From: Clostridia bacterium
Lineage (GTDB): Bacteria > Bacillota > Clostridia > UMGS1840 > HGM11507
Assembly (NCBI GenBank): GCA_045539675.1
Contig: JAZQFU010000167.1
Coordinates: 1-26,576, forward strand
Direction: 5' to 3'
DNA length: 26,576 nucleotides
Both the position numbers and the translations under genes were made by a program. Every line of letters starts with the position of its first letter. The stretch's first letter is position 1. The notes below the pieces were generated by a model that worked only from the letters and a program-made list of their open reading frames with translations, was not told the DNA's origin and ran no database searches. Positions 1 to 8,272 of this stretch are shown here, one piece after another.

Positions 1-133
1 ATCATCACGCATCTGCGTGCATCAAACTTCTCTTTCGCAATGATGATATACAACGGTTAACACCGTTGATAATATGCAATTCCTTCGGAATTGATTATAT
101 ACACGCCTTCGGCGTGATTTGTGTAAGCGGCAG
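1..133. repeat. Partial copy of the hairpin-array element (cut by the window edge); direct repeat of 287-419
   Basis: 1-133 aligns without gaps to 287-419 (offset 286) with 4 mismatches (positions 12, 14, 29, 30). It contains hairpins CACGC/GCGTG (6-19), CAACGGT/ACCGTTG (51-68), CAATTCC/GGAATTG (77-93) and CACGCC/GGCGTG (102-116). Confidence 0.95.
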
Positions 134-213
134 ACTTCACAAATATCTTTTATATTTGACGGAATGAAACATACATTAGGAGCATTAAGTCGCTTGTACT
201 AATGAAATCAAAC

Positions 214-419
214 CGACAAGCCAGGACTTGTCGATTTTTTATCCATTGCGAAAGCAATGGTATATCATCAGTCTGCAGGACTGTATATCATCACGCAACA
301 GCGTGCATCAAACTCATCTTTCGCAATGATGATATACAACGGTTAACACCGTTGATAATATGCAATTCCTTCGGAATTGATTATATACACGCCTTCGGCG
401 TGATTTGTGTAAGCGGCAG
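214..419. repeat. Palindrome-rich repeat element: conserved 12-bp unit alternating with variable hairpin spacers, in two inverted arms (REP/BIME-like, MITE-like or structured ncRNA)
   Basis: Right-arm units: TGATGATATACA 327-338, TGATAATATGCA 353-364, TGATTATATACA 378-389, partial TGATT at 401. Inverted left-arm units: GGTATATCATCA 259-270, TGTATATCATCA 282-293. Every spacer is self-complementary. Extra hairpins at 214-233 and 243-260. The structure is seen directly; the class is not determined. Confidence 0.85.
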
Positions 420-430
420 GATTTATCTTC

Positions 431-461
431 AAAAAACACAAAGAGGCTCAGAACAGCCTCT
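431..461 (-). terminator. Probable intrinsic terminator of the amidohydrolase gene, overlapping its stop codon
   Basis: The minus strand reads AGAGGCT-GTTCTG-AGCCTCT (7-bp stem, 461-442) followed by TTGTGTTTTTT. The TGA stop (450-448) lies inside the hairpin. Confidence 0.6.
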
Positions 462-1254
462 CCGCATTTTTATATTTAATCTTTTCAAGCTCGTCCTCCG
501 TAAGACCTATTGATTCAATGAATTCAAGTGTATCCGAAGGCTTCTCCCAGGGTGAATCGCTTCCGAAAAGAATTTTTTCAGCACCGTGCTTTCTTATTAT
601 ATCAAGGCAAAGCTTTTTCGGAATAAACTCACTTATAAAGGCAGTATCCATAAGAATGGGTGTTCCGCATAAAAGCTCATAAACCTCTTCCCACATCATA
701 AATCCGCCCATATGTGCGGCGATAAGATATTTTCCTTCAAAATGAGAAAGGGCATTCTTAAGCATTTTCGGAGTGCAATGAACGGGAGGAGGAAGACCGA
801 TATCCGCTCCTGCATGAATCAGCACATACATTTCAAGCTCCTCGCATTTTTTTAAAATTTCCACCGACCGCTCCGAATCAATATAAAACTGCTGAAATTC
901 CGGATGGAGCTTTATTCCCTTAAAGCCTCTCTCTTTAAGATTTTCTATTACGGACAAGGCATCCTCCTGCATAGGATGAACGCTTCCGAAGGATATCATT
1001 TTTTCATTTCTTATTCCCTCGGCAAAATCATTGATTGTTCCGCTCTGGGTTACCGTTGTTGCAATGGGCATAACAAAGCTTTTCGAAACTCCGCTTTCGT
1101 CCATTGCCCTTTCAAGCCCCGCAAGGGTGCCGTTATGACAGTTTTTCGGAATATATTTTCCCTGCTGAATCTTTATTATTTCACCCTTAAGCTTTTCCAC
1201 AGTCCTCTCTGCGATTTTATCAGGGAACGCATGGGTATGAATATCTATAAGCAT
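448..1254 (-). CDS. Metal-dependent amidohydrolase family protein (TIM barrel, Amidohydro_2/COG2159-like), 268 aa
   Basis: Motifs IDIHTH (HxH), KLHP, IHAG, AHMGG and GSDSPW. Start moved from the ORF-track 1335 to the ATG at 1254 (MLIDIHTH), which follows AAGGAGG. The upstream extension overlaps the promoter region. Confidence 0.88.
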   Translation of the reverse strand: MLIDIHTHAFPDKIAERTVEKLKGEIIKIQQGKYIPKNCHNGTLAGLERAMDESGVSKSFVMPIATTVTQSGTINDFAEGIRNEKMISFGSVHPMQEDALSVIENLKERGFKGIKLHPEFQQFYIDSERSVEILKKCEELEMYVLIHAGADIGLPPPVHCTPKMLKNALSHFEGKYLIAAHMGGFMMWEEVYELLCGTPILMDTAFISEFIPKKLCLDIIRKHGAEKILFGSDSPWEKPSDTLEFIESIGLTEDELEKIKYKNAERLF

Positions 1255-5161: not shown

Positions 5162-6935
5162 TAGAAAAAGAGATAACAGGGGAATATTTTTAAGGCTTTT
5201 CGGCTATGTTTTAAAATACTGGTATTTATTTATTCCCGCAGTAATATTCACCCTCCTTTCAAATCAGCTTGCACTTCTCGGGCCAAAATATTCGGGAGAG
5301 GCAATTGATGCAATTGTTGCGCCGGGGGGAGTGGATTTCCACGGAGTATATTTAAATGCGGCAATAACCCTGGGCTGCTATATTGCCTCTGCAATTTTAT
5401 CTTATGCCCTTGCAATGCTGATGCTTCGGATAAGCCAGAAAATAGTTTATACTATGAGAAAGCAGCTTTTCGAAAAGCTGACCTCACTTCCCGTTTCTTA
5501 TTTCGATACGCATACAACAGGTGATACAATCAGCCGTATTTCATACGATATTGATACGATAAACAGCTCACTTTCCCATGATCTTGTGCAGGTAATGACC
5601 AGTATATATACGGTTCTTGGTTCGCTTATATTTATGTGGAGCATTTCAAAGCCTCTTATCGGAGTATTTGCAATCACGGTTCCGCTTTCCATTCTTATTA
5701 CCGTTTACCGTTCAAAAAAGGTGCGCCCCTTATTCCGCAAGCGTTCGGGAAAACTGGGCGAGCTTAACGGATATGCGGAGGAAATGCTTTCGGGATGCCG
5801 CACTATTTCCGGATATAACCGTGAGGAAACCATTGCAGACCGTTTTAACAAAAGAAACAAGGATGCCATGGATGCCTATTACAATGCAGATTACTATGCA
5901 GGAACCATGGGCCCCACAATGGGACTTATAAACAATCTTTCCATTTCCCTTATTATGATTCTGGGAGGAATACTTTATATGTATTCTCAGAACGGCACCT
6001 TCCCCGAGGGAACGGTATTTTTCATTACTCTGGGCGGTGTTGCTCAGTTTGTTCAGTATTCGAGAAAATTCGCAGGCCCCATAAACGAGTTTGCAAATAT
6101 TATGAGTGAGCTTCAATCGGCATTTTCCGCGGCGGAAAGAGTTTTCAGAATAATTGATGAAGAGCCGGAGCCGGCAGATACGTTTGATGCAGAAGCACTT
6201 GAGGAAACAGAGGGAAACGTGGAAATAAAAAATGTTACCTTCGGTTATAATCCCGAAAAAATAATACTTAAGGATGTTTCCTTTAACGCTCCCGGCGGAA
6301 AAACCGTTGCAATTGTCGGGCCTACGGGTGCAGGAAAAACAACCATAATAAACCTGCTTATGAGATTCTATGATGCACAAAGCGGAACGGTTACCATTGA
6401 CGGAAAGGAAATCGCATCCTTAACAAGAAACTCCTTAAGAAAGGCATACACAATGGTTCTTCAGGATACATGGCTGTTCAGAGGAACAATTTATGAAAAC
6501 ATTGCCTACGGAAGAGACAATGCGACCGAGGAAGAGGTAAAGGAAGCGGCGAAGGCGGCGAGAATAGACAGCTTTATCGAAAGTCTTCCCGACGGATACA
6601 ATACCGTTATTACCGATGACGGTATTAATATCTCCAAGGGGCAGCGCCAGCTTATAACAATCGCCCGTGCCATTATTTCCGATTCACCCATGCTTATTTT
6701 AGATGAAGCAACCTCAAATGTTGACTCAAGAACCGAAATTAAAATTCAGGAAGCAATGAATGAGCTTATGAAGGGAAAAACCTGCTTTGTTATTGCTCAC
6801 AGACTTTCCACCATTCAGAATGCGGATATGATTATCGTTCTTCAGAACGGTGAAATCACAGAAATGGGCAACCATGAGGAGCTTATGAAAAACAAAGGGT
6901 TTTACAGTACACTTTATAATTCACAGTTTGAGTAA
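5154..6935 (+). CDS. Heterodimeric ABC exporter subunit (TMD+NBD) with the consensus catalytic site, about 593 aa
   Basis: Walker A GPTGAGKTT, degenerate signature ISKGQRQL, Walker B LILDEAT, H-loop IAHRL (TM288/EfrB-type). Start placed at TTG 5154, 6 nt after GGAGGTG and overlapping the upstream stop. The ORF track uses GTG 5145, which lies inside the RBS. Confidence 0.92.
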   Translation: MTDRKRDNRGIFLRLFGYVLKYWYLFIPAVIFTLLSNQLALLGPKYSGEAIDAIVAPGGVDFHGVYLNAAITLGCYIASAILSYALAMLMLRISQKIVYTMRKQLFEKLTSLPVSYFDTHTTGDTISRISYDIDTINSSLSHDLVQVMTSIYTVLGSLIFMWSISKPLIGVFAITVPLSILITVYRSKKVRPLFRKRSGKLGELNGYAEEMLSGCRTISGYNREETIADRFNKRNKDAMDAYYNADYYAGTMGPTMGLINNLSISLIMILGGILYMYSQNGTFPEGTVFFITLGGVAQFVQYSRKFAGPINEFANIMSELQSAFSAAERVFRIIDEEPEPADTFDAEALEETEGNVEIKNVTFGYNPEKIILKDVSFNAPGGKTVAIVGPTGAGKTTIINLLMRFYDAQSGTVTIDGKEIASLTRNSLRKAYTMVLQDTWLFRGTIYENIAYGRDNATEEEVKEAAKAARIDSFIESLPDGYNTVITDDGINISKGQRQLITIARAIISDSPMLILDEATSNVDSRTEIKIQEAMNELMKGKTCFVIAHRLSTIQNADMIIVLQNGEITEMGNHEELMKNKGFYSTLYNSQFE

Positions 6936-7020: not shown

Positions 7021-8211
7021 TTAATTATTATACATATCGGTTCTTGTCTCGTTCATATATATGTTTTTTCCTACAGAGTTACTTGACACGGATAAGCTTC
7101 TTGTAACAACAGGCTTGTTTATATCAAAGCTTGAGACTGCATATCCTTTTCCTGTTGCTCTGTCCACAACCTCACCGGTTGCCGACACAATGCTTGTTGC
7201 GTGTTCTCTATACGTACAAGCGACCGCAATCGGTGTTTCGGTAAGATATGCCGTTGCTCTTATCTGATATTCGGGATAGCCCATTGTAGGATCAAGCAAA
7301 AGCTGAACTCCTTTTTCACACAGGAGCCGGCTTAATCCCGGATACCACATATCCCAGCAGATTGTAAAACCGATTTTTCCTATTTCCGTATCAAATACGG
7401 GTGCTTCGTCACCGGGAACAAGTCCCATTTCGTGCTCGTTGACTGTCAGATGAGATTTATCATAGGTTCCCACAACCTTACCGCTGCGGTCAATGAGCAC
7501 GGCAGTTGCATAATAATTTTTCTTTTCATCAACCCGATGAATGGAAAAGGCAAGAAAAACCTTATGCTCTTTCGCCTTCTCCTTCATAAGCGTCATTACT
7601 TTTCCGTCCATGGTTATTGCCTTTTCAGCTATCGTTATGCCTTTCACAGGAACAGAGTGAAAATGCTCTCCCAGAAGAATCAGGTCGGGGTGCTCTTTTT
7701 CTGCCACCTGGTCAATGCGCTTTAAAAATTCCGCAACAACCACATCGAAAATCGCCGTGCTTTCAGGATTTGAATATTCAAGCCCCTTTTCCTCGCCAAG
7801 GCAAAGTGCCGCGATTTTTACATTTTTAGCCTCATATTCCCTTTCGTATTTAATGGAAAAATCACCTGCAAACACCTTTGCATTTTTCTTGGTATATATG
7901 ATAATATGCATTTTGACTTTTACGGCACCCTCCGGGCTTAAAGCCTCGTCACCATCCTTTGCATAATACCTCAGAAGCTCTTTATCATTGGTGTCATACC
8001 ACGAAATTATGCACTTGCTTTTTGCCCCTTCAACGCACAGATTTAAATTAATCGTATAATACGCATTTTCATTACATTCCAAAGCTTCGCTGACAAGCTT
8101 TAAATTTGCATAGGTTTCGGGTTTAAGCTCTGCGTAAACGCCGAGGTCTGTTTCTGAAAGCTTTATATTTGATTCTTCGCATATTTTTTTTACATTCCAT
8201 TTATTGCACAT
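7021..8211 (-). CDS. Carbon-nitrogen hydrolase (nitrilase superfamily amidase) with an extra N-terminal beta-sandwich-like domain of about 130 aa
   Basis: Glu-Lys-Cys triad contexts LILLGEH, TYDKSHL and FTICWDMWYP. Start probably ATG 8211 (9 nt after GGGAG) rather than 8220, which abuts the RBS. No signal peptide. Confidence 0.85.
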   Translation of the reverse strand: MCNKWNVKKICEESNIKLSETDLGVYAELKPETYANLKLVSEALECNENAYYTINLNLCVEGAKSKCIISWYDTNDKELLRYYAKDGDEALSPEGAVKVKMHIIIYTKKNAKVFAGDFSIKYEREYEAKNVKIAALCLGEEKGLEYSNPESTAIFDVVVAEFLKRIDQVAEKEHPDLILLGEHFHSVPVKGITIAEKAITMDGKVMTLMKEKAKEHKVFLAFSIHRVDEKKNYYATAVLIDRSGKVVGTYDKSHLTVNEHEMGLVPGDEAPVFDTEIGKIGFTICWDMWYPGLSRLLCEKGVQLLLDPTMGYPEYQIRATAYLTETPIAVACTYREHATSIVSATGEVVDRATGKGYAVSSFDINKPVVTRSLSVSSNSVGKNIYMNETRTDMYNN

Positions 8212-8272
8212 AAAAAGCATCTCCCGTTTTTACGTTCCCGGCATCCTTCCGCTTGTCCGCTCATTTTTAAAA

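Follow-up and report, generated by a model that had tools for sequence, protein, structure and literature searches.

Tandem orphan copies of a dyad-symmetric hairpin-and-word module in a Clostridia genome and its putative Avd-like protein partner

Two tandem arrays of short hairpins joined by a constant word lie at the beginning of contig JAZQFU010000167.1 in the metagenome-assembled genome (MAG) of a Clostridia bacterium (GenBank assembly GCA_045539675.1; Bacillota, Clostridia, UMGS1840, HGM11507). Here we describe these arrays and their relatives, starting from a stretch of 26,576 nucleotides (positions 1 to 26,576 of the forward strand; hereafter the window). The feature consists of two orphan copies of a dyad-symmetric module of about 180 bp, which belongs to class W1; this is the name given to arrays that carry the window's word, and the superfamily, whose arrays directly follow tRNA and tmRNA gene terminators, has further word classes. 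The genome, labelled G000, comprises 2.27 Mb in 342 contigs and is 97% complete. C-numbers denote its contigs, L-numbers the array or gene loci compared, and G-numbers the genomes compared. All array carriers are MAGs, and contigs break within the arrays.

A preliminary description had marked a 12-mer that recurs in two inverted arms, and the repeat positions it gave were found to be correct. The 12-mer TGATDATATRCA has eight matches in the window, against a mean of 0.05 in 100 shuffles, none of which reached eight. They lie at 41, 67, 92, 327, 353 and 378 on the + strand, at 282-293 on the - strand, and at 7899, so that seven of the eight fall within 1-420; a near-copy is present at 259-270 (-). 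The lone exact match outside the arrays (TGATAATATGCA, 7899-7910) is located within a CN-hydrolase gene (7021-8220, -), has no surrounding hairpins, and is probably a chance match. The five spacers, which had been described as self-folding with stems closed by the CA/TG ends of neighbouring repeats, are all perfect hairpins once the flanking CA/TG is added. The array does lie in the interval first marked (243-410), but the full unit extends from 241 to 420, and a second copy at 1-133, cut by the contig start, had been overlooked. The four differences between the two copies are confined to one loop and the unpaired centre. All parts are listed in Table 1.

Table 1. Array copies and flanking features at the start of the window (positions in nucleotides of the window).
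Feature	Position	Strand	Remarks
Array copy 1, cut by contig start	1-133		97% identity to 287-419
Copy 1, arm A: end hairpin	6-19		
Copy 1, centre and P1 3' strand	32-42		
Copy 1, arm B	words 41-52, 67-78, 92-103; hairpins 51-68, 77-93, 102-116; partial word 115-126		
Inter-copy spacer	134-208	+	3' extension including AAATATCTTTT
Terminator-like hairpin and T-run, abutting copy 2	209-240		stem 214-233; also scores as terminator on - strand
Copy 2, P1 local hairpin	243-260	+	CCATTGC-GAAA-GCAATGG; mini-hairpin core GCGAAAGC at 248-255
Copy 2, arm A	261-305	+	word TATATCAT 261-268; hairpin 269-283; word TATATCAT 284-291; hairpin 292-305
Copy 2, centre	306-328	+	unpaired 306-317; P1 3' strand CTTTCGCAATG 318-328, 11/11 complementarity
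Copy 2, arm B	327-412	-	words 327-338, 353-364, 378-389; partial word 401-412; hairpins 337-354, 363-379, 388-402
End of repeated unit	413-420	+	identity to copy 1 stops at 419
Terminator common to array side and convergent amidohydrolase gene (448-1335, -)	432-471		stem 442-461

The 5' half of P1, together with its loop, is complementary to the 11 positions of the P1 3' strand (318-328). A GC-rich hairpin directly followed by a T-run, as expected of an intrinsic terminator, was found only at the two flanking hairpins (214-233 and 442-461); the array hairpins are followed by a word instead of a T-run, and the last of them is a weak terminator match through ATTTGTGT. The junction of hairpin, T-tract and ATCCA at 209-240 recurs in 104 relatives. 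No promoter or gene stands behind either window copy: copy 1 leads into the spacer and its terminator, and copy 2 into the terminator of the amidohydrolase gene. Tandem copies also occur in other genomes, where they are parted by related extensions with a T-loop-like GGTTCGAAT piece (class '-X': L068, L071, L113). An open reading frame of 103 aa that runs through the array (202-513) was treated as not real because its frame shifts with hairpin length, and candidate promoters inside the array or on the - strand were rejected, as they reach only 9 of 12 consensus matches and are made of the words themselves. The fold energy of the array is far below that of shuffled sequences on both strands (z -6.5 and -6.9); palindrome-rich DNA gives such values on either strand, so they name neither the strand nor the choice between DNA and RNA.

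G000 carries four W1 copies at three loci, namely the window pair, one copy on C236 and one on C229. The latter two are 79% and 73% identical to the window copy and sit behind tRNA-Trp and tRNA-Gln, respectively. An exact-pattern scan with one genome per species recovered at least 120 further stretches in other MAGs; among the stretches listed, nearly all come from gut MAGs of animals labelled Acutalibacteraceae, Oscillospiraceae, Eubacteriales or Clostridia. BLAST searches of the array in eight other genomes of the same family gave no match. Among 2.9 million viral contigs only two array matches were obtained, both about 160 nt from a contig end, and a phage origin was rejected on that count.

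The W1 copies share one plan. Its 5' part begins with a CCA end and an A-run, continues with a terminator hairpin and T-run, and closes with ATCCA and the P1 hairpin. Arm A contains one to three words (TATATCAT, TATCTCAT or CATATCAT), each with a CA...TG hairpin behind it; the centre is short and closes with the P1 3' strand; and arm B has nearly always three words (ATGATATA, ATGATATG, ATGATATA), each again followed by a hairpin, and ends in the partial word TGATT. The words are nearly invariant and the stems variable: across 118 copies, 16-21 distinct stem strands occur at each of the three arm-B hairpins, and pairing is complete in 92-93% of the copies. When 5' and 3' halves from different copies were combined into chimeras, pairing was far poorer, and none of 500 reached the observed value. 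P1 exists in at least three compensating versions, with a longest complementary run of 8.6 nt on average compared with 5.6 nt when partners are shuffled (0 of 500 as high). The covariation of P1 and the arm-B hairpins therefore places within-strand pairing under selection, and the earlier view that the spacers conserve structure and the repeats sequence is borne out by these compensatory changes, with the stems co-varying and the words fixed. Pairing between the words of the two arms, which would give a rod of four-way junctions, was dropped because the words that vary by position (TATCTCAT in arm A, ATGATATG in arm B) show no compensation between the arms.

W1 copies occupy the 3' ends of stable-RNA genes. 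An intact tRNA gene on the same strand, of many isoacceptor types, lies upstream of 61 of 125 copies, and other copies follow ends of transfer-messenger RNA (tmRNA) genes or tRNA 3' fragments. CCA and an A-run precede the terminator hairpin in 80 of 104 copies. A few terminator hairpins recur behind different tRNAs, and the terminator therefore travels with the module. On the far side, TTGATT-17-TATAAT is present downstream of 42 of 121 copies, with the last word supplying the -35 box, and a conserved leader with a ribosome-binding site (RBS) follows the promoter and precedes unrelated small genes. At class 'P-' loci (e.g. L030, L041, L054, L070, L075, L087, L116), homology covers the promoter with its spacer (…CGCTTTTATGCTATAAT…) as well as leader and RBS, and the genes behind them are unrelated (lipoproteins, RDD-family proteins, XRE regulators, an InPase-like protein). 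Terminator, array and promoter amount to a portable module.

Such a position could also be that of a purely cis-acting element, located upstream of promoters or insulating the stretch from the tRNA gene to the next promoter, with no dedicated protein. The module does lie between a terminator and a promoter, its last word overlaps the -35 box, and promoter and 5' untranslated region are conserved before unrelated genes. However, some copies, those in the window among them, lack a downstream promoter, a single genome contains many mutually exclusive word classes, and these classes track the clades and the presence of genes for PF05635 proteins, as described below; we consider this explanation highly improbable.

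The comparison with an empty site proposed at the outset was possible within the genus: one same-genus genome has another terminator and no array behind tRNA-Trp, and similarity ends exactly after CCA. This break in synteny, the placement at tRNA and tmRNA 3' ends, the tRNA 3' fragments before many copies, the diverse accessory genes downstream and the position of the two viral-contig matches at contig ends would all suit words that serve as arm-type sites in an attL- or attP-like site of tRNA-targeting integrative islets. Against this, G000 has at least eight word classes and only two tyrosine recombinases, no integrase was found next to W1 arrays, and arm sites recognized as duplex DNA do not require co-varying hairpins between them. 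An attachment site is thus a very unlikely identity for the module.

Further sequences were observed around the arrays. Conserved non-tRNA sequences recur in the 60 nt before the A-run and terminator of W1 modules (e.g. ...GCTATTTTAAGCTGTAAACAC and ...GGCACATTTCATTCGTGTCATTAAGTTCAAA) and are shared within the groups L019, L023, L026, L035, L050 and L123; L024, L058, L064 and L087; L070, L077 and L098; and L081, L105 and L117. They match no Rfam family at the gathering score and may be 3' ends of small RNAs (sRNAs) or decayed tRNA pieces. At L007, a G-rich tandem repeat (GGGGCCAAGGGG, several copies) directly follows the W1 array (approximately 7830-7900 of the oriented strand). At L172 (G002:C54, 1010-1290), two direct copies of an unrelated repeat of about 190 bp (…CACCTGCACCA(C/T)GT(C/T)GAA… hairpin, T-run and GCAAAAAAGT…) lie upstream of a gene whose G000 homologue stands behind the C236 array.

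The preliminary description had mentioned similar arrays beside small four-helix-bundle genes in Clostridia, and such genes do accompany the arrays. Of 85 genes located directly behind W1 arrays, 15 form the largest cluster, which encodes a protein of 114 aa that belongs to PF05635/TIGR02436, scoring 67-70 bits with Pfam (cut-off 33.8) and 75-78 bits with TIGR02436 (cut-off 24). Its AlphaFold2 model is a four-helix bundle (pLDDT confidence 94.8), and the closest structures are 2RLD (template-modelling score, TM, 0.86), 2GSC and Avd, the accessory protein of diversity-generating retroelements (4DWL, TM 0.79); the fold is thus like that of 2RLD and Avd. The crystal entries 2RLD and 2GSC contain five chains each. 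PF05635/TIGR02436 (annotated as '23S rRNA intervening-sequence protein', Avd-like) is a very large family for which we know of no role outside diversity-generating retroelements. Avd pentamers bind a tetraloop-capped stem-loop via flipped-out bases at its foot (bioRxiv 10.1101/2023.10.23.563531). By analogy, a hairpin with a fixed flanking word would be a target of the type that Avd binds, and an Avd-like four-helix-bundle protein probably reads the array.

G000 encodes about ten PF05635 genes, and the member of the W1 clade sits behind the C229 copy rather than in the window. With the exception of the one on C180, every intact PF05635 gene of G000 that is not at a contig edge has a mirror array upstream that carries a word of its own: GTGATATT on C69, GTGGTATT on C330, GCTAAAT on C209 and the W1 word on C229. 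A strict dyad detector recovered only six arrays in G000, since it requires exact 7-mers; a loose scan, which is the better census, detected at least 36 arms in at least eight word classes. Among these classes are GCTAAAT, GCGATAT, TCGATAT, GTGATAT, GTGAAAT, CAATTCATG and ACATCATT; examples of arrays are C150:598-907, C182:7725-7899, C223:7894-8055, C188:3409-3600, C334:1118-1411 and C6:16842-16923. Many arms in G000 lie less than 100 nt from a contig end, and many contigs, that of the window included, start or end in an array, so the repeats probably cause much of the fragmentation of the MAG. Other PF05635 genes have no hairpin array (L143, L144, L154, L157, L160; G000:C96:1100-1437 and C242:550-900) and instead have short, purine-rich words in tandem upstream (AGGAATTA, AATGAAGAAT, GAATTAAG), which sometimes fall into two inverted groups; this is a second context class for the family.

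Word class and protein are coupled. A tree of 56 PF05635 proteins requires 16 changes of word class, compared with 37.9 after shuffling, and none of 200 shuffles was as low; one switch of word, to ATGTAAT, occurs inside the W1 clade on a long branch. Because linkage of a gene with its upstream DNA may explain part of this clustering, unlinked arrays were examined as well. Among five better-assembled relatives, GCTAAAT arrays were present only in the two genomes with that gene class (four of the sites unlinked) and AGTGRTATT arrays only in the two with theirs (at least seven unlinked in G006); TATATCG arrays occurred in the three genomes with the matching gene and also in G011. Gene classes are known for only some genomes. 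In a sample of 300 genomes across the class, which are not independent of one another, the W1-clade gene (at least 83% identity) was detected in three, from three different families (G000, G036, G106). All three carry W1 arrays, at three loci (four copies), three loci and nine loci, respectively, and 293 genomes have neither gene nor array. Multiple W1 copies were found only in gene-carrying genomes of this sample, which favours some part for the protein in maintaining or multiplying the arrays. By hand calculation, the probability of finding all three gene carriers among the seven array carriers is approximately 8 in a million. Within the window's own order (25 species), only G000 has the W1 gene or W1 arrays.

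The same distribution bears on the possibility that the module is a self-spreading non-autonomous DNA repeat, akin to REPINs (paired repetitive extragenic palindromic, REP, sequences), bacterial interspersed mosaic elements (BIMEs) or miniature inverted-repeat transposable elements (MITEs), with the four-helix gene incidental and another enzyme moving it. Its restriction to G000 within the order, the inverted pair of palindrome-rich arms outside genes, the several diverged copies per genome with a tandem pair in the window, and the same-genus tRNA-Trp site without an array all fit a mobile repeat. The enzymes named as possible partners in the preliminary description were not encountered: the profile of RAYT (REP-associated tyrosine) and IS200 Y1 transposases (PF01797) has no match in the 97%-complete genome, nor was a reverse transcriptase (PF00078) found there. 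Only two tyrosine recombinases were found. Moreover, the outer borders show neither terminal inverted repeats nor target duplications, the G000 copies are only 73-79% alike apart from the tandem pair, and multi-copy states are limited to genomes with a matching PF05635 gene. We therefore regard a self-spreading repeat with an incidental four-helix gene as unlikely.

The hairpin loops carry a polarity that is mirrored between the arms. On the + strand, 123 of 237 arm-A loops are of the form G..A and two T..C, as compared with none G..A and 209 T..C among 276 in arm B. Rare G-T versus A-C mismatches lean the same way as the loops (13:1 in arm A, 3:9 in arm B). The favoured strand is thus + in arm A and - in arm B, and therefore no single transcript carries both arms in the favoured form. 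A C-G pair closes 471 of the 513 hairpins (92%), and the full C(GNA/GNNA)G signature is present in 318 (62%); the arrays thus show the hallmarks of DNA mini-hairpins, namely a C-G closing pair and a loop of 3-4 nt with 5' G and 3' A on one strand. Canonical cores (GCGAAAGC, GCGAAGC, GCGTTAGC, CCGAAGG, GCGGAGC and kin) number 262 on the favoured strands and five on their complements. The arrays prefer triloops (302, versus 172 tetraloops), whereas the adjacent terminators, which act as RNA, prefer tetraloops (82, versus 4 triloops), mostly TTCG and GAAA. The same cores occur at the origins of phages G4, St-1 and alpha3, at RSF1010 ssiA and at phage N4 promoters, and such mini-hairpins are hyper-stable, melt near 70-76 °C and are poorly bound by single-stranded DNA-binding protein (SSB; 2026 review, PMC13037366). 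The N4 promoter hairpins, which have a 5-7-bp stem, a 3-nt loop with 5' G and 3' A and a C-G closing pair, extrude in vivo at physiological superhelicity (PMC4496689).

Module anatomy, stem covariation, mirrored loop asymmetry, placement at tRNA ends and co-occurrence of gene and array are the observations on which the following proposal is built. With about an even chance of being correct, the W1 module is folded DNA whose units dock a putative class-specific Avd-like protein. The module would act through exposed single strands or extruded mini-cruciforms; in each arm, the strand running 5' to 3' towards the centre would fold into short C(GNA)G-type mini-hairpins and display the constant 8-nt word TATATCAT between them. 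Each hairpin-plus-word unit would be a docking site for a pentameric Avd-like four-helix-bundle protein (PF05635) specific for the class and encoded behind one 'master' array per genome, in G000 that on C229; protein and arrays would be gained, kept and multiplied together, in the manner of the RAYT-REPIN partnership. The single-stranded nucleic acid with repeated protein-binding sites that had been suggested initially agrees with these data. We infer the physical binding, the DNA rather than RNA state and the action of the complex; possible roles of the latter are promoter control, insulation of read-through, or REPIN-like upkeep or spread. A more tentative extension, which may be correct but is doubtful, holds that PF05635 pentamers and arrays form a new type of nuclease-free protein-repeat partnership, analogous to that of RAYT and REPIN, in which each paralogue reads its own word between SSB-resistant mini-hairpins on transiently single-stranded DNA at tRNA 3' ends and either drives upkeep or multiplication of its arrays or uses them for strand-specific initiation or control.

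The array could instead be a structured non-coding RNA of the kind represented by Gut-1, an Rfam motif considered below, produced by tRNA read-through or as a leader and bound by the Avd-like protein as RNA for self-regulation or as a sponge. Rfam files the sister motif as sRNA, Avd binds an RNA stem-loop in diversity-generating retroelements, W2 arrays appear inside the 5' leader of a four-helix gene, fold z-scores are about -6.5, and GAAA and GNRA loops are also RNA motifs. Yet the asymmetry of loops and mismatches is mirrored between the arms, the GNA triloops that dominate are unlike the UUCG and GNRA tetraloops of the adjacent terminators, and neither strand of the window copy contains a convincing promoter. 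W1 copies begin directly behind the T-run of a terminator and stop at an outward-facing promoter, so little transcription is expected. An RNA of this kind is rather unlikely in our estimation; given the mirrored loops, the mini-hairpin signature and the different loops of the terminators, folded DNA appears roughly twice as probable as RNA. The frequency of wobble pairs was discarded as a test of RNA against DNA because the adjacent terminators are equally Watson-Crick.

Several points weigh against a folded-DNA module with an Avd-like partner. The low wobble content does not separate DNA from RNA, and extruding 5-7-bp stems from duplex DNA costs energy and has been demonstrated only for N4. 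The sole solved complex of Avd with a nucleic acid contains RNA. In class W2 (GCTAAAT), some sister arrays are placed after a promoter-like TGnTAGAAT and before the RBS of the four-helix gene, with no promoter between array and gene, and may therefore be transcribed as a leader. The G000 W1 gene has a -1 frameshift in a T-run after codon 32, with the rest of the frame intact; four of the 300 genomes carry one W1 array each without a detected W1 gene; G011 also carries TATATCG arrays, and the cognate gene was not found there; and the clustering of words on the protein tree is partly expected from linkage of the gene with its upstream DNA.

Three side observations concern these points. The frameshifted gene (L004:1299-1484, -; G000:C229, approximately 6180-6530) may be a pseudogene or reflect a homopolymer assembly error. 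Upstream of GCTAAAT arrays stands a perfect hairpin of 13 bp (GAATAGATTTAAC / GTTAAATCTATTC), and its 5' strand overlaps the conserved TGnTAGAAT, an extended -10-like box (G000:C209:2330-2375, C150:560-598, C182:7690-7725; L150, L161, L165). In the public run X1, which is of uncertain kind and possibly RNA, short contigs over the conserved array start (window positions 235-351) sum to a depth of about 86, compared with about 2 for the neighbouring gene; this depth most likely stems from many organisms sharing the words and not from expression.

This study adds to the description of such arrays the mirrored loop polarity, the DNA mini-hairpin cores contrasted with neighbouring terminators, and the co-occurrence table of 300 genomes. 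Gut-1 has been an orphan Rfam motif since 2010, and arrays of its type are one arm of mirror-symmetric modules at tRNA ends, whose classes rise and fall with matching PF05635 paralogues. The module anatomy, the mini-hairpin signature and the class coupling make the questions of Gut-1 and PF05635 testable by binding and probing experiments, and if the partnership is true, it would provide the first function for PF05635 outside diversity-generating retroelements. The modules are also of practical importance because they break MAG assemblies and mark variable gene slots behind tRNA genes.

Several known systems resemble W1 in part. An array of clustered regularly interspaced short palindromic repeats (CRISPR), with identical direct repeats of 24-48 nt and unique, non-repetitive spacers of about equal length, was rejected: the repeats here have 8-12 nt and two orientations, and the W1 spacers are palindromes of 11-18 nt with homology from copy to copy (no search for cas genes was made). 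REP, BIME and REPIN elements with their RAYTs are extragenic inverted palindrome pairs of which one genome may hold several orthogonal families, each tied to an adjacent gene, and the folded strand differs between the two halves of a REPIN. W1 is like them in its inverted palindromic pairs, its orthogonal families, the protein gene beside one copy and the half-specific folded strand. In contrast to REP-RAYT systems, its putative partner is a 114-aa four-helix bundle rather than a Y1/HUH nuclease, the conserved part is the linker and not the palindrome, and placement at tRNA 3' ends is strict; the arms are inverted, as in REPs, but the 5' GTAG tag of REP units was not found in them. Ends of IS200/IS605 elements differ as well: no TnpA Y1 transposase was found, and hairpin polarity is mirrored rather than confined to one strand. 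The 23S rRNA intervening sequences of Leptospira and Coxiella have an S23p/PF05635 reading frame at a stable-RNA gene beside inverted repeats, whereas in W1 the gene stands apart from the RNA gene, downstream of a terminator and of a promoter of its own, and hairpin-plus-word arrays occupy one side of the gene.

The Avd proteins of diversity-generating retroelements (4DWL, 8UB7) share the fold of the putative partner (TM 0.79) and grip a stem-loop as a pentamer. W1 differs in offering six to eight sites per module instead of one, and probably in using DNA instead of RNA; no template/variable repeat pair was found in G000, and the four-helix gene is followed by unrelated small genes. The mini-hairpin signals of the G4, St-1 and alpha3 origins, RSF1010 ssiA and ssiB, and the N4 early promoters have the same cores (GCGAAAGC, GCGTTAGC, CCGAAGG, GCGGAGC) on a defined strand, and ssiA and ssiB of RSF1010 stand on opposite strands. 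Unlike W1, they are single hairpins at phage or plasmid origins or promoters that are read by primases or RNA polymerase; W1 consists of chromosomal arrays with a class-specific word.

The closest relative is Gut-1 (RF01706), which was described from gut metagenomes as a one-arm RNA without a partner protein (Weinberg et al. 2010, PMC2864571). The motif consists of three hairpins joined by GUGAAAU; the row of hairpins is present in W1, and the word is instead UGAUGAUAUACA or its complement. Rfam scans of the window, at the gathering score and at a permissive E of 10 or less, returned chance hits only and left Gut-1 unmatched, and the Gut-1 model has no match at its gathering score (50 bits) in 18 W1 loci. 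It does match 22 other places in G000, five of them above the cut-off. The novelty of W1 is limited by its likeness to Gut-1, although the covariance model misses this class: given the shared architecture, the two are sister classes, and Gut-1 is an orphan motif already in the catalogue. In each, a constant word connects a series of short, variable hairpins, and the Gut-1 matches in G000 often form facing pairs on opposite strands, behind tRNA genes and before PF05635 genes, as W1 does; Gut-1 is therefore one arm of one sister class within the same superfamily.

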